A DNA stretch of 63,375 bases, filler included, from Globobulimina sp. (GCA_003354225.1; 53 parts of 53 records of this genome joined end to end with filler, not necessarily neighbours in it); one strand, 5' to 3'; counted from the whole stretch's first letter, positions 5,996 to 59,784 are shown. Made by a program: numbers and translations. Notes: generated from the letters alone by a model not told the origin.

Positions 5996-6702
5996 TATTT
6001 CTGATTGCGATCCAGTTCGAATTTGTTTTTCTCTTTTAACATTTGTTGGAAACGTTTCTCTAAATTTTGTATTTCAGTTTCAAAGTTCTGTCGGGTTTCT
6101 GATAAAATGAGATCTGTTGCATGTTTATTTATTTCCGATGTTTTAATTAATTGTAGGTATTTTGCGTGCATTCTGTCATAATCTTCTTTCAATTCGTCAT
6201 GTAATCTTTTACTGTTTTCCTCATTTGTTTGTGCTTCGATTATTTTATCCTCTGACTATAGTTATATGTAAATGTTATATCAATATGTATGCACTGATCA
6301 CAACAACAAGAAAACATTCGAACGATCGATTTGTTGGAATTATTGGCTCTTTTCATAAAAACGTTACCTAAAGATAACGTTTTTACGAAAAGAGGCAATT
6401 TAAGTACACACATTCGAATCGAAAGAACGCATCAAATAAAAGAGTCATTGTGATAGCTTCTGATACTTAACTGATTCTAATTGAATTTGAAGCTGTTCTT
6501 GATGTTGTTGTAGATTGATGCATTGAGGACATGCATTGTATAAAGAGAGAGAGGGAGAGTCTTCTAGTTGAGGTTGAGGAGAGTCTTCATCAATATCATC
6601 ATCTGTTGACTCCGTAACAGAATTTATAGGCGTAAAATGCTTTGTTGATGGCGATGGCGGTGTTGATTGAAAAGACTGAAAACACCAACAAAAGGCATCC
6701 AT
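5996..6702 (-). CDS. Coiled-coil protein, probably spliced, partial
   Basis: ORF from MDAFCWCF; Q/E/K heptad segments at 6445-6560 and 5996-6192. Confidence 0.45.
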
Positions 6703-7094: not shown

Positions 7095-8483
7095 NNNNNN
7101 NNNNNNNNNNNNNNNNNNNNNNNNNNNNNNNNNNNNNNTTAATTAATTAANNNNNNNNNNNNNNNNNNNNNNNNNNNNNNNNNNNNNNNNNNNNTTCACC
7201 AGAAATTGAAGTTATGGATGAGTAGATGGCTACGACTTGATTTGCAGTTTAATATGTTGTTGTCTATCACTCTGTAATTAATATTGATTCGTAATTTTTG
7301 ATTTGAATGATGCTTTATTTTACTATTTCTTGATCTGGAGCTGTTTAGTGGCTTTATTCTCTTGCCTCATAACTCATTTTGCATTTTGTTGTTTTTGTTG
7401 TTTTCTTTAAATTTTTTTGTAGTGTAATGGTGTCGGCTTTTACTGTGCCTTGGAACAGTGACTTGTTGTGAGTGTTTCTCTGTGTATTATTATGATACTG
7501 TTTATTCTGTTTCGAGTATATTTGCTTATTGACATGGTTACACCCCCACAGACGCAGGGAACTTTTGTCAGAAACATGATACAGTACACGGGTGAACCCC
7601 ACACTTATGCACATTTTTCCTTGTTTAGCGGATGTTTAGATAGTTTTGGAGTTTGGTGGTTCTATAAGTCCAAGCTGGTGATTCTGTCTAATGGTCTTCC
7701 TCTGTCCAGCGTTAGATGGTTGGTTGGGTGTAGTTGGTCATGAGGCCCATGCAATCGTAGCGAAAATAACAGGAAAAATCGTAGGTTTTGTGGCTGGAAC
7801 CCTATGTTTGCTTAGTATTTTCTTGTTTGTTGCATTTCATTATATTTTGTTTCTTTTAGTTTTCACCATTTACAAGACACTTAACTTTCTTTTTTTGTTT
7901 CTTTCTATTCATCATTTACGGGTACCGTACCCTTTGCTAAAATTTTCGTGCTAAAACTTTGCTAAATTTGTTTGTTTGGCCGTCTATAGCTACGTGTGGT
8001 ATCGCAACTGGACAGTATTCGATCCCTGTTGAATACATTGTGCTAGCCCCACGATGTGTACAATTGGTGTGCCGACGAAGTCTTGTCACTCCCTATAGTC
8101 ACTTGTTTCCTGTGACAACTGAATGATCGGTTTGTTTTGTAGTGTATTTTCGGTAACATTTTTTTCTTTATTACATAATATACAACGAACATCATATACA
8201 TCAGTAAACAATAGGACAATGGTTATTTTAAGTTACAATTTTCATAGTATCCCAACTGGTATTGCCTTCACATCACATGTCCCCCATTAGAGTNNNNNNN
8301 NNNNNNNNNNNNNNNNNNNNNNNNNNNNNNNNNNNNNTTAATTAATTAANNNNNNNNNNNNNNNNNNNNNNNNNNNNNNNNNNNNNNNNNNNNATTTATA
8401 TTATACCTATCTATCTTGCTATATTGAATTGTTTTAAAATGTTTATAAAGTTTTTATTAGTAGTGTTATTAGTCACAGTCTGT

Positions 8484-8710
8484 ATATACCTACCAAACAC
8501 ATTTTAGAAAAGACAATAATTTTTCACTCCTCTCGACTTTTTGAAACTTATTTTGTGCTCCAGTATAGTTATGCTATATTTTACAAAAAAACGTAGTGGC
8601 CCGTTAGACATATTTACCAAACAAATTTTTAGAAAAGAAAATAACTTTTCAGTCCTATCGACTTTTTGCAATTTATTTTGTGTTCTGGTATAGGTATACT
8701 ATTTGCCAAG
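8484..8710. repeat. Degenerate tandem duplication (about 100-nt unit, period about 125)
   Basis: TACCAAACA..TTTTAGAAAAGA.AATAA.TTTTCA.TCCT.TCGACTTTTTG...TTATTTTGTG occurs twice. Confidence 0.8.
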
Positions 8711-8730
8711 ACAATATTTTATTGATGCAC

Positions 8731-8770
8731 ACATACATACTTACATACATACATACATACATACACACAT
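8731..8770. repeat. (CATA)n microsatellite
   Basis: acatacatacttacatacatacatacatacatac, directly 3' of the polymerase stop. Confidence 0.85.
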
Positions 8771-8785
8771 AGCACATCAAAGTGA

Positions 8786-9491
8786 TCACATATTATCACT
8801 CTTATCACATTCTTCTTCTTCTACTTCGAATGCATCCTCCCGATATAACAATGGCTCAGTGCGTAAACCATAGCATCGACGTTTTGCATAAAAAGTTGTT
8901 AATGCAGATCGCTTCAGTTCATAACGAAGCATAGTTTGTTCTCGCATCATAAATCCGCGATTTACTCCAGAAATTACTTCACCCTTCATAAGAGAACGAA
9001 AATAATCTTCTTTCGTAAACGCGTTGTTCTTTTTCTGTAATCCCTTCTGTGAATTTTTACTGTTGGTAGGCCCAAGTTTCGGGTCATCATTCCAAGCAAC
9101 ATAACATTTTGGAGCCAAACTAAAACTCAAACAAGTAAATTCATTTCACTGAATCAAAGACAATCAAAATTACCATATCATTCCTGTGCCCGCATATTCT
9201 AATTTCATTCGACCAGGCATATTGGAAACATTCCTGGGTATCATGTACAAGTCTCTTTTTTCTTCAAACTCAGATCTTCGCTCTGGTATTACAAGTGATT
9301 CAAATTCGTCAAGTGTCTCCTTGGAACATGCGAAATACTAAAACAAGTGATGGATACACAATATAATCAATTAAACAGATAGTTACATACCATACTGTCT
9401 GTATCCATCTCCATAAGTTCCCAATCTGATCTCTCAAAGAAGTAATCAAGATATTCGTAATAGGCCTTAAGCATGGTTAGTTTGGCCATTC
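8786..9491 (-). CDS. Polinton/adintovirus-type DNA polymerase B, C-terminal part, with two spliceosomal introns
   Basis: Exons 9491-9391, 9337-9174, 9119-8786 join in frame: AKLTMLKAYYEYLDYFFERSDWELMEMDTDSM|YFACS...PGRMKLEYAGTGMIC|LAPKCY...KNSQKG...GVNRGF...FYAKRRC. Confidence 0.85.
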
Positions 9492-9591
9492 NNNNNNNNN
9501 NNNNNNNNNNNNNNNNNNNNNNNNNNNNNNNNNNNTTAATTAATTAANNNNNNNNNNNNNNNNNNNNNNNNNNNNNNNNNNNNNNNNNNNN

Positions 9592-9896: not shown

Positions 9897-10689
9897 ATGA
9901 CACAATCAGCTACACCAATTTTCGCAAAGCCGCCACAAAGCGATGCGGAATTCAAATTGCATATTGCAATTGATTTTGGAACAGACGGATTGGGTATGAA
10001 AAAAATTCAGATATGATGAGAGTATGTCGGGATTCGTGACTGATTTTTTATGAAAACATGTGACACCCTCGGTGTGTCTTAACTGTCTTTATCGATGAAT
10101 ATTTATCCAAATGAAGCAGGAACAACGCCAAAAAAATCCACATATACGTTCTAAGCATATTCATTACAATGTTTATTTGTAGTAATATTAGCTACTATGC
10201 CTCAAAAATGGCTGTTTCAATACAGAAATTGGTAACGAATCCCGACAATGCTGTGATTATACTTTTTTTTATACGTTCCGTTATTGTATTGATAGAGTTT
10301 TATAAAGTCATGAACTATGAAAAATTGTGCATACAATATAGGTCTGGCATATGCTATTGACGATAAAGTATTTGTTCACAGTAAATGGAATTCTGAGAAA
10401 TATAGAGATGTTATAAAACCGAAAACAATCATCTTATTGGATAAAGAGGGAAATGTTGATGCATTTGGTTTAGATGCAAAGGAAATGTTTAGTATATGAT
10501 TTTGTTTTGTACGTTATCAACAAATTTAATATAATATTGTTTCTCAGATATATGAAATTGAAATCAAAAAAAGATCATATGCTATTTGAGAGATTTAAAA
10601 TGATGTTATATGGTTTCGTTCTTTTCATATTTTTTAACATCAATTAATGATAATATCTAAATATATAAAATAGATGGACACATACAAAA
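9897..10689 (+). CDS. HSPA12-like Hsp70-superfamily protein, N-terminus, multi-exon
   Basis: IAIDFGTDGL|GLAYA...KPKTIILLD...AFGLDAKEM|Y...LFERFKMMLY joined across GT-AG introns. Confidence 0.8.
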
Positions 10690-17977: not shown

Positions 17978-18810
17978 TCAGCAATCGTGGTCTACCAATC
18001 CTGCGTTGACTGCGTTGATTAAATATGTCAGAAAAAGGCATCCGGGCAAAGGTAGTAACACTTTGCCGGTCACCGCAAGTGTTCTCATACAAATTGTGCA
18101 GTATATACTTACATTTAAGGTATATTATGGCTGTCTTTTCGGGCCATCTGGCTCGATAAAACCAGGTTGAAATGGTATCTCTTTGCCATGTCCATTTTGT
18201 TTGTTGGTGTCTTAGGCCTTCGGGGTGCTGAGTGCTATGAGAATAGCAACAAAGCCTATACGGGATATGGCATTTATTTGCGTGATTTGATGGTGTATTG
18301 GAAGGATGCTGTCACCGGCACTGTATATCAGTAATCGGTATTCGCGCGCGTATAATGATTTGCATCATATCCGAGTCCGTTTGCGCCATTCCAAATCGGC
18401 GCGCGTTGGCAGTGATGTCTATCTCCGTTTGGGCCGTACCAATCGCGCCATTGAGCCAATGCTGTTAATATATCATGTGTATCATTTGCAGAAAAGAGAA
18501 TTACAGCGTATGTACAAGTTCTCTGTGCGCAGTAGATATTTGTTTGAGGTGCCAGGGTGTAACAGCACTCTGACGCAGGTAAAAAAGACGTGGACTGCCA
18601 TCATTCGTGAGATGGGCTTTCTGGAGGCCGACAGGTATCGTTTTCATGGCATTCGCAAAGGTTTTGCCACCACGTTACTGCAAAATGGCGTGCCAACGAG
18701 TTTGATTGCATACGCAGGACGGTGGAAGCTGACGGCGGCTATCTATCAGTATATCATTCATACACAGAATGAGTTGATAGGGCTTGCGTTCATGTATCTG
18801 TATGGTTCAC
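17978..18810 (+). pseudogene. DIRS/Crypton-type tyrosine recombinase, frameshifted
   Basis: LGLRGAE (R), HSKS (K), FHGIRKGFAT (HxxR), GRWKLTAAIYQY (W, Y); frame changes near 18150 and 18325. Confidence 0.85.
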
Positions 18811-18819
18811 CGTTGTATT

Positions 18820-19075
18820 ATCGAGAGATGAACAATAAAAATCATGGACACCTACAATTCATGCGCTGTACCAGCACTTGCTGTGAAAAAATAAACTCGG
18901 GACGATGTGATTGTGGTGACTGTCTTGAGGATTGTGAACATTTTATTATGAATTGCCCGTCACATGACACACAAAGACTTGATTTGATGGATACAATACG
19001 TTATTATTATGATATGTACAACGTTGCTATCACCTATCAATATATTTTGTTTCCACCTATTTGTATGCGATGGAG
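18820..19075 (+). mobile_element. C-terminal zinc finger of a non-LTR retrotransposon ORF2
   Basis: GHL...CDCGDCLEDCEHFIMNCP...R fits the CxC...ExxxHF..CP LINE tail. Confidence 0.6.
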
Positions 19076-21571: not shown

Positions 21572-22669
21572 AGAGCAGTGGTGGCTAAAAAACAAATTCA
21601 AACATATGTAAATAAATTAATCAAAGCTATGAATGTAAGTGATGATTTTAATCCGGAAACTGACCAAGGTAAAAAAATGAAAGTCTCTTACAAACCTCAT
21701 CCGTGTAGTATTAGGTTTTGTGATATTAACCCGACAATGAAAGATTATGAGGAACATTATGCAGAATTACAAATGACTGTTCAAAGGCACGACTGCATAC
21801 CTCCTCCTAATGGCTGTTTAAGAAGAAAAAAAGGTAAAAAAGAGTTGGAATGTCGATTTCATTTCCCTAAGACAGTAACTGACCCGCCAACAACAATAAT
21901 TAGATTTGAGAAAAATAAAGATGGTTTTATTAGAGCAAAGATTGAGGTAAAAACAAATGATTCTCAATTAAATCAATGTGAGAAATGTCAGATTATGGGA
22001 CACGCAGCCAATGTGGATATGCAAATAATGTTAGATTTTCATGTCGCAGTTAATTATGCAGCCAAATATTCCGCGAAGGGTGAGAAAACAACAACGGATG
22101 TACAGGAAACATTAGAAAGTATTCAAAAATATAGTAATTTGGCAGAACCTGGCAGTAAAGCGTTGCAAAAATTAATGATGAAATTCGGTCAACAACGTAA
22201 TTATTCTGCACAAGAAGTTATGTTTCATAACTTGGGAATACCATTAGTGGAACATCCAAATTTAAAGTTTGAAGATGTAAATTTATATTCGTCTGTGACA
22301 TGTTTTATTGATCCAAACTCCAAAACATGGAAAACATCGAAAAATTCTATGATCATTTTATAGCTCACGCAGAAAAATTAAGTCCAGCCGCTAAGAACGC
22401 TTCTGATATGTTGGAGGTTGAAATTGAAGAAATTGAACTGATGGAATTAGAGGAAGAAGAAATGGAAGACGAAGATGGAATATTTGAATTTTCGAGAGGC
22501 CCAAATTATGAAACAACAGATATGGATGAATATCCGATTATTGATGAAAATAGTTTACGTTATGATTGGATTAAACATTCTGAGAAATATTCACTCGATG
22601 AAATTAAATCGCTGCAAACATGGTTAGATTTCCAAAAGAAAATAACCAAAGTTCCACGTAAAAGTAAAA
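21572..22669 (+). mobile_element. Helitron/Helentron Rep-helicase fragment, frameshift near 22330
   Basis: QRHDC...CRFHFPK, ND..LN, ANVDMQ, NYAAKYSAKGE (Rep motif 3 YxxKY), RNYSAQEV...LGIPL. Confidence 0.88.
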
Positions 22670-32353: not shown

Positions 32354-33450
32354 TGGCCTCTCGCAATGAGATAACTTTTGTAATTAATAAATTGCTTATT
32401 AATAAACTGTTGATCACAAATACTACGTATTCTTAATGCTGTTGATGATATTATGGCTCTTTTTTGATGATTTCCGTGGCACGAATCGTTTTGTAGTGTG
32501 CACTGCGTAGCGGCATCTTTTGAATGCCCATCCACCGCAATGTCCCATCCCCAAAATTGTAACTCATCAAATATTTTAAGTTTGCGCTGTACCAAAAATT
32601 TCGTGTCTAATATTTCTAAGTACTTTCCATTTAAATCTGTGTCTCTATTCACGCAGTCATAGTCCAGCGTAAATTGTAGTGCCTTATTTAGCGAATTCAT
32701 GCCATATAATAAGCATTTTAAATCAAAAGTGTCTCCACATCCCGCCCCAAAATAATCATCTCTGAACCTACCACCCATTAAAACTTCCAACGCCGATCTC
32801 TGTCCAATCCAATTTATATCACTTAATAGATTGTCATAACACACTATGGCTAAATCTGCATAGCGACACGCCCAACATCTGCCCATTCCGCATCCTCTTC
32901 TTTTGATATATAACTTTTCATTCCATCCAAAGACGCCTCTTCGTAATGCTATATTCAATAAATCTAAAATGCACTCCATCGATGGGTGAGATGCTAATAA
33001 ATTGTTATTTTCCTCAAATCGTAATTTTAATTGTTTCAATCCGTATTCATGCAATATAGACGGATATAATTTTACCACATCAAATGACCAGACAATGAAA
33101 TCCGGTCTATTTCTGATTCTCCATTGAATGTCTAAATCTTCGTTGAAATTAATGATTCTTATTAATAAATCTTTGGTGTCCTTTAACAGGAAACCTTTCG
33201 CTAATTCGGCTTTCCAGATTGGTTCAATCAAATAATCAATGAATTTATCCGTCGGCTCCCAAAAAGTACCGACAAATGATGAGATTAAACGCAATGAAGG
33301 CTCGGCTTTATGCGTTTTCCACAAAGGGTATAAATTTGCGTTTCTATAATGGTATCTCGCCGGAAATTGGGGGGCCAGCGCCTTAAACCATTCTTCTTTT
33401 ATTTCTCCTTTGTCGACCCATTTTGACAGTGCTTTTGTCAAAATCTCTAC
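32354..33450 (-). mobile_element. Penelope-like element reverse transcriptase, open frame
   Basis: LWKTHK...LRLISS, LKDTKDLL, SFDVVKLYPSI, GCGMG, RFRDD, LQFT, DSCHGNHQK, LIARG. Confidence 0.9.
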
Positions 33451-33550: not shown

Positions 33551-34647
33551 AAGAAACCAGACATTTTTTTGCTGCAAGAATCATATAAATTTTATGAAGA
33601 AAAAGAAGCGAATTTAACAGTGAAAGTTAAGAATTACCAAACATTTACAAATAAGAAAGATGGATACGGCAAAGTCATTATTTTGTCATTCACCACGAAC
33701 GCGTTAACATTAATTTTAAACATAACACAAAGATCAATCGAGAAATTGCGAGATTAGACATGAAAATCAATGAAAACAAAAACAGAAAGACAGCGCTGTT
33801 AATGTCAAAACTGTACGTATTGACATTGAAGGTTTATGATAGAGACATGGGACAAGCTTTTATTGTTAATAACTATTATCGCCCTCAAAATGGCAAACCA
33901 GGGTCAAAAATCGAACTATTATTGGATTATTTAGATCTTTTGATTGCGACAAAGAACTACAAATCGTTTCCGATCCTGGTTGGAGGCGATATGAATTCTC
34001 ATAATAATGCATGGTTTGAAGGAGAAGTTAGACCGTCAAAGGCAGAAAAAAGCGGAGCAATTTTGGCAGATTGGATATATAATAATAAATACATGATATT
34101 AAACGACAAGAAAGCAACGAGAGTGAGGAAACAACAGAGGACGTCTCCTGACGTAATGTTTATTAACGACAAATACTGGACAGAGGACTTTAGACATTCA
34201 AACATTAATAAATATTATTCAGATCACTTGGCGCTGTTTGCATATTACAGCAAAGGTGAATTGTATGAAAAAGATCCAAGACTTTTTTAAACACAGAATT
34301 GTTGACACTTCGATTGATATTTTAGGATTACGGAAAAAAACGATCGGAAACGACAAACCGTGGCTGACGATAAAAATGAAGAACGCCATAAAAGATTATA
34401 TTTGTTATAAAGAGCGATTTAAATTATTCAGCAAAAGAAAAAAAACAGCAATGAAGCACGTATTGATTGAAAAAAAGAGAATTAGCGATGAACTCTGTGA
34501 CAACGGAAGAAAAGCATGGATCAAAGATGAAATCAGAAACATTAATAACAACGGTACAATGCCATGGAAACAGATAAATAATATAATCAAATATGATAAC
34601 AATGCCACAAAAAGTATCCCAGTGTGGTATAATGAGAATGGTACGAT
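33551..34647 (+). pseudogene. AP-endonuclease region of a non-LTR retrotransposon ORF2, disrupted
   Basis: PDIFLLQES, NNYYRP, GGDMNSH, SPDVMF, SDH, then KPWLT; stop at about 33757 and a frameshift near 34290. Confidence 0.85.
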
Positions 34648-45420: not shown

Positions 45421-45723
45421 NNNNNNNNNNNNNNNNNNNNNNNNNNNNNNNNNNNNNNNNNNNNTTAATTAATTAANNNNNNNNNNNNNNNNNNNNNNNN
45501 NNNNNNNNNNNNNNNNNNNNATACAATCTTTTGATATCATGTACCCTCATTTTGTATTTATTGTACAAATTGTTTTCTTTTTGGAATGCGTTTTTGGTTC
45601 AAAAAAAACAGGCAAACAAAAACAAATTAAAATTAACGACAAAGAAACTTACGAAATAAAGCAACCAAAGAAAACAAAAAAGAAACAAAAAGTGCCACAT
45701 AAATGTCTGTGCGATATTTTATT

Positions 45724-46617
45724 TTATTGTTGAGTTTTAATGGTGATGGGCGGTCCAAATTTTTTCTCATTTTGTTTATGTGTTTGTGATTTCAAATGTC
45801 GCGTATAAGACGACCTTTGTCCAAATCGCTTATGACAAACCGTACATTCATGTGGCTTCTCCCCCGTATGAGTCAAATGATGATTAATTCGGGCCCGCGA
45901 ATCCTTAAATCGTTTGGGACAATATTTACATTTAAATGGTCTCTCGCCAGTATGTACACGAATATGTACTTTTAAATTCTGTTTCAATGTAAATCTCTTG
46001 CCACAATACGTGCATCCAAATCTTTTCAGGGCCTCGGCACCCGATTTCTTCTTATCTTTGCCCTCATGGTTGCCACTGTTGCTATTACTGTCTATTAATG
46101 CATTTTGCGCTGTTTTCAATGATGGAATTCCTAAATCATTATTCAATATATTTACTAATGAATTCTGATTTGCATCTGGACACTGTATAATTATACAAAG
46201 GTATCAAGACACAGCAAACAGTCAAAGACAAACCTGTGTCAACTCAAATGCAGTGACGTTTGGAAACTGTGCAACCATATTACTAAAATTTAAATTATGC
46301 GGTAAAGTGGGTACTGTTAAGTTCGTGTTGTTGGAGATTGGTTGTATGGATATATTGGTGGCATTGGCGTGTTGTATGGAGGTCGGTGAGCTGCCACTTT
46401 GCGAGGAAGTCGATGTGGTGGAGGTTGTGCTGTGATTGATTTGCATGGAGGGAGGACACGGCATAGTGGTCATATTAAATGCATTGTTATTCGCATGGTT
46501 GTTATTATTATTACTGGTGGTCATGAACGAATTTTTTGTATTTGTTGCATTGTTTACCGTCGGTGCAGTATCATGCGAGGTGGTGATGGGAAATATGTTG
46601 GCCGTGTGAGGGTTAAC
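45724..46617 (-). CDS. C2H2 zinc-finger transcription factor, spliced, partial
   Basis: Three C2H2 fingers with HTGERPF/HTGEKPH linkers; upstream N/S/T-rich exon; intron at about 46183-46233. Confidence 0.93.
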
Positions 46618-58687: not shown

Positions 58688-59784
58688 GCCTTCGCCACGC
58701 CCATCACTGTTTTTGCCTCCTCGATCACGGATTTTTCCCCAATCAAATGCAACAAAAAATTGTACATTTCCCAATATATTTTTAACTATTTGCGATTTAG
58801 TTTCATAAGGAATTGCAAAAGATAATTCATTCCGTAAGTAAACTCCACTATCGCCTAGAACGGATTCATCCTTTAAGCCTCGGACTGTATAGATGTCTCC
58901 CATGCTAATTTTTTCAGAAGAATAAACTGGATCAACAGTATACTGAGCCTCAGTTTGGTTACATAAATTAAATGGTAATTTTTTCAAAGCAAAGACATAA
59001 CATGCTCCGCCTCCAAATGTGAATTTCTCAAATTGTGCATGAGGAACCGTGAAATCAATATTTTCTTCATCTTTTTTTGCATCTAAAATATCTAGACCTT
59101 TTTCATAATTCAAACGAGCATGAAATATTCCTTTATCATATCGATCGCTATACTCAGCACCGATTTTAGCGATAGATAATTTGCGACTTTGTGTGTCTAA
59201 TTTTACATTTTCTAGATAGCTATCCGTGTCTTTATATGTGAATCCTGAAGAAATTTTAGCAATGGCAGTTTGATCTCTGTAAATTGTTCGGGATAGATCA
59301 AAGCTTTTGCTACTAGTCTGTCCAGAAGATTCAAAGACAGAATTTGTGCCTTGGATAGGAGAAATATAATCTGATTTATTATAACTAAAACGAGTGAACC
59401 AATTTCCAAATGGCATCAAAAAACTACCAGAAATATTATCATTTTCTTTTGCTGAATCTTGCGTATTCTCTTGGTTATAAGAAATTATTAATTGATCATT
59501 TAATGATAATAAATTGTCTTGTTCAAATCTTGCAAAATTTTTCCAGCGACCAGTAGCCTTCTGTCCATAATTATTTGCTCCAACCCAAAACCTAGTCTGG
59601 TCATCACTTTCATTAGTTATATGGACGATGCTTGCAGCTTCTTTTTCTGCTGGCAGCAAATTAATTTTTGCATTATTCGAAGGCAAGCGATTCATATTAT
59701 CAATGCCTTGTTCGATGTCTCGAATGTTTAAAATTTTGTCTTTTTTTGTAGGAAATGCCATCCAGATTTGTAGTTTTTCTTTCC
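58688..59784 (-). CDS. Bacterial two-partner secretion outer-membrane transporter (ShlB/FhaC/HecB/CdiB family), partial
   Basis: POTRA LNIRDIEQGIDNMNRLPS, NNYGQKATG, DNLLSLND, YTVRGL...GDSGVYLRNEL, FDWG; intronless. Confidence 0.93.

Follow-up and report, generated by a model that had tools for sequence, protein, structure and literature searches.

The locus examined here raises the question of what a gene for a virus-type, protein-primed DNA polymerase B (PolB) is doing with two short introns, and of the kind of genetic entity to which such a gene belongs. The question has a practical side. Gene finders for Polintons, Mavericks, and related endogenous viruses rely on intronless core genes, and prokaryote-style ORF calling misses intron-bearing copies; in the stop-to-stop ORF list for this gene, the last exon was the sole long ORF, as the earlier note had remarked.

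The window, that is, the whole stretch of DNA that was analyzed (positions 1–63375), is an artificial chain of 53 unrelated contigs, each 1099, 1098, or 1097 bp long and arranged in order of length, with 52 identical 100-bp linkers between them (N44, a 12-base spacer with stops in all six frames, and again N44). The PolB gene lies on the 1098-bp contig at 8394–9491, and its truncation at 9491 is due to the contig end, not to biology. Because the contigs are unrelated and artificially joined, neighboring genes in the window give no genomic context for this PolB copy.

Eukaryotic domains were recognized elsewhere in the window (TTL, caspase, ABC transporter, and M16 peptidase), along with transposon fragments. 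The latter were found among four regions, 33655–34287 (plus strand), 18291–19073 (plus), 32356–33450 (minus), and 21572–22360 (plus), where one match was to an endonuclease-reverse transcriptase (E = 7e-13) and another to a tyrosine recombinase (Phage_integrase, E = 9e-8), while two contig-spanning ORFs among these four regions were without a Pfam match. One contig (58688–59784) encodes a bacterial ShlB/FhaC two-partner-secretion transporter (58688–59782, minus strand; Pfam ShlB E = 1.5e-77, POTRA_3 E = 3.8e-21). The assembly is therefore mixed, and the PolB contig may come from an organism other than the main one. The transporter contig is AT-rich, and its bacterial DNA stems either from a symbiont or from contamination. 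Scans of the whole window for Rfam families and tRNAs found no RNA marker of the host.

Structure of the interrupted gene

On the minus strand between 8786 and 9489, removal of two GT–AG segments (53 and 54 nt) restored one open frame (Table 1), and the exons were free of stops and frameshifts across 594 coding bases. The first intron starts one codon past the DTDS motif, exon 1 ending in ...EMDTDSM. In all these points the gene model of the earlier note was borne out. Exon 3 contains the KxY motif (PKCY) and a conserved C-terminal domain (K..KG, N, SG.NRGF, FYAKR). Intron 1 shifts the frame, and reading through it leads to a stop after 7 codons (ORF 9367..9543); reading through intron 2 leads to a stop two codons in (ORF 9170..9337).

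Table 1. Features of the PolB-bearing contig and of its boundary, in window coordinates
Feature	Position	Strand	Basis or remark
Exon 1 (P0001), 33 codons to contig end, Pol motif C (DTDS)	9391..9489	minus	BLASTP, hhalign, tblastn
Intron 1, 53 nt, GT...AG, phase 0, 26% GC	9338..9390	minus	read-through stop, clustered indels
Exon 2 (P0002), 54 codons + 2 bases, motif C-to-KxY region	9174..9337	minus	hhalign
Intron 2, 54 nt, GT...AG, phase 2 (splits TG/T), 26% GC	9120..9173	minus	read-through stop, kept in copy
Exon 3, terminal (P0003), 110 aa + TGA at 8788-8786	8786..9119	minus	HMMER, hhalign
AATAAA hexamer, 63 nt past stop, possible poly(A) signal	8718..8723	minus	weak; 229 occurrences in the window, may be chance
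(ACAT)n microsatellite, 3' flank	8731..8771		sequence
Two 88-nt direct repeats (8491-8577, 8615-8702), 85% alike, 3' flank	8491..8702		sequence
Artificial linker (N44, 12-base spacer, N44)	9492..9591		closes the PolB contig; unrelated contig beyond

The junctions were located by comparing each exon separately, by hhalign, with a family profile (A3) made from an alignment of 12 full-length relatives. Exon 1 matched profile positions 1032–1064 (E = 1.4e-12), exon 2 positions 1065–1145 (E = 4.9e-7), and exon 3 positions 1147–1237 (E = 5.1e-21), the single unmatched position, 1146, being the split codon. BLASTP to one relative (P0007, 1386 aa) returned the three exons in the same order, at residues 1183–1213 (E = 3e-7), 1221–1297, and 1299–1384. 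At the DNA level, exon 1 gave tblastn matches in 75 of 80 relatives' loci; in one of the intronless loci (L031) the match of exon 1 ends at base 6606 and that of exon 2 begins at base 6607. Since the hhalign positions are colinear and adjoining, and the two matches in L031 abut, both junctions are exact to the codon.

The possibility that the two introns are copies of each other was ruled out, their similarity being at the level of shuffled controls (score 5 versus 5.6 ± 3.2). Neither intron recurs elsewhere in the 63,375-base window. Judged from their sequence, the two interruptions carry all the properties of spliceosomal (U2-type) introns, and they would presumably be removed by splicing.

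The earlier note had also held that the intron sizes resemble those of other genes in the window. What remains of this comparison is a single neighboring contig, read by eye, within a set of unrelated contigs from a mixed assembly: there, an Hsp70-like gene (IAIDFGT... motif; 9994–10673, plus strand) has three putative introns of about 348, 61, and 61 nt. Two of these three putative introns have weak GTTT.G 5' ends, again by eye.

In the 392 nt past the stop there was neither an ORF nor any likeness to the protease gene located after PolB in the relatives. In place of terminal inverted repeats, the 1098 bp of the contig showed only the two direct repeats listed in Table 1; a portion of this flank is also present, in altered form, in one of the public runs described below (X1). 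Genes for a double-jelly-roll capsid, a packaging ATPase, or an adenain-like protease were not found in the whole window, and the 1.1-kb PolB contig ties no integrase to this copy.

The encoded polymerase and its relatives

A HMMER search with exon 3 against 1.84 billion representatives retrieved 87 proteins at E ≤ 1e-3, two at E ≤ 1e-10, and one at E ≤ 1e-30, and the matches sit at the C-termini of long relatives (864–1388 aa). The Pfam family DNA_pol_B_2 (PF03175; cutoff 25.8 bits) was passed by three of nine long relatives, namely, P0073 (51.6 bits), P0007 (30.0 bits), and P0034 (28.7 bits), in each case over a stretch lying upstream of the part present in the contig. Among the single exon peptides, none of the three matched Pfam, the PF03175 threshold not being reached, and a PDB sequence search with single exons found nothing. 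Because the exons do not reach PF03175 and the region matched in the relatives is upstream, membership of this family rests on homology to those relatives.

The polymerase motifs DxxxLY, KxxxNSxYG, DTDS, and KxY are present in the family consensus (A3), together with exonuclease-like motifs. The EMDTDS of exon 1 (Pol motif C) falls on the family's invariant D-T-D-S columns, and the P-K-C-Y at the start of exon 3 (KxY motif) on its invariant K and Y. The DTDS of palm motif C provides the metal-binding aspartates. Of the columns conserved in at least 95% of 94 relatives, 25 of 29 are kept in the contig's peptide, with DTDS and both named residues of KxY among them; the corresponding figure for columns conserved at 80–95% is 13 of 21. 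Exon 2 is without a Cys/His-rich stretch of about 30 columns that is present in the relatives between motif C and KxY. The assignment to PolB proposed in the earlier note was supported: the peptide consists of motif C, KxY, and the C-terminal part of a protein-primed PolB whose relatives are found in Polinton/Maverick/adintovirus-type elements.

The Atlas clusters nearest to P0007 are eukaryotic, with 95–100% of members carrying PF03175 and Nematoda as the commonest recorded phylum. A Helitron_like_N assignment for exon 3, suggested by Atlas clusters at 0.87–0.88 (below the 0.9 lead level), was contradicted by the HMMER results and discarded. Exon 3 had no tblastn match among phage records. 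No relative was found in IMG/VR by scans with exon 3, with a two-row alignment (A2), or with the family alignment A3, nor in metagenomes and genome contigs by scans with A2. The other contigs of the window yielded no further PolB sequence.

Full-length relatives have an inserted segment with a ...HGC.WHGH... motif (at about 870–900 in P0007, and also in the A3 consensus), for which Pfam gave no match at E ≤ 0.001. By eye, the segment recalls the Vsr-type endonuclease domain of mollusc and marine-nematode Polinton pPolB2, which is described in 10.1101/2023.08.22.554363.

A metagenome-contig scan with A3 yielded relatives in 499 of 596 candidate stretches; 80 loci were kept, only 31 of which are at least 9 kb long. 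Iterated searches over all ORFs of the 80 loci detected an integrase in 25 and an ATPase-like ORF in 19, and in 27 loci a capsid candidate occurs together with a protease-like ORF. In the two loci tested for this (L004 and L045), the integrase, of 384–385 aa, has rve and Chromo domains and adjoins PolB; these loci also contain ORFs whose weak likeness to Peptidase_C5 (E = 0.008) or to Pox_A32 (E = 0.007) falls short of the Pfam cutoffs.

The capsid candidates are ORFs of 424–487 aa. One of 452 aa, folded with 16 aligned homologues, gave a model with a pLDDT of 84.5 and a pTM of 0.85, and this predicted fold matched the double-jelly-roll capsid proteins from PBCV-1, an iridovirus, mavirus, and Sputnik (Foldseek E of about 1e-16 to 1e-14). 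Its matches in BFVD were a bracovirus-borne protein and the capsid proteins of MELD virus, adomaviruses, and virophages. The best of them, R9XLG5, is uncharacterized and recorded under Cotesia bracovirus (E = 2.8e-26, 25% identity).

Inverted repeats were detected in two of four loci examined, at the very contig ends in L009 (108 nt, 97%) and within 70 nt of the ends in L011 (104 nt, 93%). In both L009 (1–16771) and L011 (1–17959), PolB has a C2H2 zinc finger at its N-terminus and is accompanied by an rve-chromo integrase, a double-jelly-roll capsid, and protease-like and ATPase-like ORFs; the two contigs look like complete Polinton/adintovirus-like genomes. Given the rve-chromodomain integrase, the double-jelly-roll capsid, and, in some, the inverted repeats, the relatives are Polinton/Maverick/adintovirus-type elements of about 16–18 kb.

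A second possible Polinton fragment in the window, the contig at 45521–46617, was rejected, as it showed a generic C2H2 zinc-finger likeness only. Its zinc-finger ORF (45724–46203, minus strand) is 40% identical over 83 aa to the N-terminal zinc-finger part of the PolB ORF of one locus (L018).

The PolB genes of the relatives are uninterrupted. A single ORF of 1177–1840 aa was present in 17 of the 20 largest loci, and the C-terminal PolB region was unbroken in 68 of the 80. This agrees with the statement, made in the earlier note and in print (see below), that the core genes of Polinton-type elements are mostly intronless. The gene on our contig departs from this usual trait, having two introns in its last 704 bases.

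Copies of the gene and its place in the family

Two public runs, both in the form of contigs, contain parts of the PolB contig: X1, with 0.43 of the words sampled, and X2, which is a marine sediment metagenome, with 0.12. RNA runs were absent from the list of runs with a match, and the alignments gave no joints. Thirteen contigs aligned in X1, three at 99% identity or more, one at 95–99%, six at 90–95%, and three under 90%; six aligned in X2, none at 99% or more, three at 95–99%, two at 90–95%, and one under 90%. Two of the three runs of the X1 sample had no trace of the PolB contig. The gene therefore exists in multiple copies; those within a single run could represent different strains or species instead of paralogues. 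One X1 record (record 7; 448 nt, 88% alike, with 54 differences and 2 gaps) spans intron 2, and another (record 8; 913 nt) spans both introns.

Differences between copies were counted from the best-supported rows listed, beyond which there are 32 further substitutions and 9 further indels. Among the differences listed, all eight indels inside the gene fall at 9349–9369, within intron 1, an intron in which the X2 copies have a (TA)n run. Intron 1 also has 9 listed substitutions in its 53 nt, a density of 0.17 per nt, compared to 0.02–0.06 in the exons; intron 2, at 0.056, is not above exon 3. On the listed indels and the substitution density of intron 1, evolution of the kind seen in noncoding DNA, as expected of a spliceosomal intron, was observed. 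In the exons, 21 of the 27 differences listed are at third codon positions (binomial p = 3e-6), including 14 of the 20 in exon 3. On this sequence record, the PolB gene family looks alive.

Two loose ends of X1 contigs were read by hand. Beyond 9489, the frame stays open for ten more codons and includes P-x-x-V-G, against P-x-x-I-G in the family. At 9123, the 27 letters directly 5' of exon 3 can be read, in frame, as the last part of exon 2; in a hand alignment with the spliced junction of our contig, 22 of 32 letters are identical, with several residue changes. This X1 contig, which appears to lack intron 2, may be an intronless DNA paralogue or the spliced RNA of a paralogue.

Outside these runs, a homologue search with exon 3 found none among longer proteins and, among proteins of near length, only P0004. 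This only close relative (111 aa, 65–67% identical, from one 7.2-kb contig of JGI source) starts precisely with exon 3's first whole codon, a start that an ORF caller would be expected to give if noncoding sequence stood upstream there too.

A tree was built from 95 C-terminal sequences over 204 columns; in it, the contig's PolB fell inside a clade of 60 rows (SH-aLRT 96), at the end of a long branch (1.49 changes per column, versus a median of 0.25). Its identity to any row of the tree is at most 43.5%. Because of the long branch and the low identity, its place inside the 60-row clade is unsure. Such fast evolution could mean a changed function.

Origin of the gene and comparison with known systems

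In our view, the contig at 8394–9491 probably holds the last ~198 codons of a Polinton/Maverick-type protein-primed PolB from an intron-bearing lineage of endogenous elements, or from a recent derivative of one. The gene, with its two short introns of spliceosomal type, would then be part of the nuclear genome of an AT-rich eukaryote, and the enzyme, presumably still active as a polymerase, would be produced by nuclear transcription followed by splicing by the host. The several diverged copies would form a family with introns in common, kept under purifying selection. The contig's copy would itself belong to an endogenous Polinton-like lineage (or a recent derivative) in which introns entered the polymerase gene before it was copied, introns included, at the DNA level.

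A more ambitious version of this proposal is that a Polinton-type pPolB lineage with spliceosomal introns in the palm/thumb region has multiplied with its introns in place and under purifying selection, representing either a virus-like element that depends on splicing or a domesticated polymerase. We offer this tentatively, as something possible rather than probable. If true, a replicase with conserved introns under selection would mean that the element has settled into host-style nuclear expression, or that a host has kept a protein-primed polymerase.

A different reading is domestication: a Polinton PolB was captured by a host and is now an ordinary nuclear gene with introns, single or one of a small family, that serves the host outside any mobile element. 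The introns found here, as opposed to the uninterrupted PolB of the relatives, point in this direction, given that introns in viral genes have been read in print as marking domestication or host genes (PMC10675990, for transcripts of viral regions); the long branch, the missing Cys/His-rich insert, and the purifying-selection signature in the exons would also suit it. The same can be said of the lack of a converging protease gene past the stop, unlike in the relatives, but the flank is only 392 nt, so absent neighbors weigh little. Retention of most catalytic and family-conserved residues (25 of 29) is expected under either reading, whereas several diverged copies, 88–99% alike, in one run are more in keeping with a repeat family than with one host gene. 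On balance, we consider capture by a host unlikely.

The source of the contig is a separate matter, as DNA from another eukaryote in the sample (prey, a co-cultured organism, or a small animal) would be compatible with any other reading; the introns would then be uninformative about the assembly's main organism. The mixed nature of the assembly, evident from the bacterial ShlB/FhaC contig (E = 1.5e-77), makes such an origin conceivable. It would also agree with the pieces 94–97% alike in the marine sediment metagenome, the eukaryotic Atlas clusters near P0007 with Nematoda as their commonest recorded phylum, and the lack of the PolB contig in two of the three runs of the X1 sample. Yet the base composition of the PolB coding sequence (GC 0.384, GC3 0.338) is inside the spread seen among 27 further long ORFs in the window (0.355 ± 0.047 and 0.316 ± 0.072, respectively), the introns and flank having 26–28% GC, and one neighboring contig seems by eye to have introns of about 61 nt. 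Neither point is strong, and we regard a foreign contig as a rather improbable source.

That the gene is instead a decaying pseudogene, a dead Polinton PolB with two insertions that start with GT and end with AG by chance, is very improbable: splicing of both interruptions is read from sequence here, and most endogenous Mavericks are degraded, with short insertions that gene finders call "introns" (as stated in PMC8097293), but both interruptions fall exactly between homologous columns and are common to copies 88–96% alike, the 594 coding bases have neither stop nor frameshift, 21 of the 27 listed copy differences are at third positions, and P0004, at 65–67% identity, keeps an open exon 3 with the same start.

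Published accounts of related elements repeatedly describe intronless core genes. According to PMC8097293, the ORFs of intact vertebrate Mavericks are free of introns, as Kapitonov and Jurka 2006 had also stated, and Maverick core genes are likewise given as intronless, with introns only in cargo genes, in 10.1101/2022.07.12.499685. Endogenous viruses of protists are stated to contain no introns (PMC10120064), none were found in Cafeteria virophage-like elements (PMC8547959), and GT–AG boundaries were looked for in Oxyrrhis elements and not found (PMC12721341). Polinton/Maverick elements as such have been described in nematodes, molluscs, and protists (10.1101/2023.08.22.554363). Our literature search, which covered main texts and few subscription papers, returned no conserved short introns inside a Polinton PolB and no domesticated pPolB.

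Compared with the Polinton/Maverick pPolB (PF03175), the contig's gene shares DTDS, KxY, the C-terminal domain, and 25 of 29 conserved columns and is nested in the 60-row clade; it differs in having two short introns, a long branch, and an identity of 43.5% at most, and in being without the Cys/His-rich stretch. The adenovirus DNA polymerase offers a parallel, being the protein-primed PolB of a Polinton-related nuclear dsDNA virus that is expressed from host-spliced mRNA. In that case, however, splicing connects the main ORF with a short exon upstream of it and is not known to fall within the palm/thumb, whereas the introns on our contig cut the palm/thumb region.

The closest published precedent for the introns themselves comes from dinoflagellates, where introners lie inside Maverick-Polinton-like proviruses, about a quarter of the viral introners being in coding regions (PMC11957031 and PMC12166617). 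As spliceosomal-type introns inside endogenous Polinton-like elements have already been published in this form, the novelty of the present case is reduced. The dinoflagellate introners are described there as repeated transposon families, whereas the introns of our contig (53–54 nt) are mutually unlike and do not recur in the window. Finally, the nematode Mavericks of 10.1101/2022.07.12.499685 resemble our proposal in that intron-bearing genes travel inside them as DNA; in that account, however, those genes are host-derived cargo, and the core genes, including PolB, are intronless.
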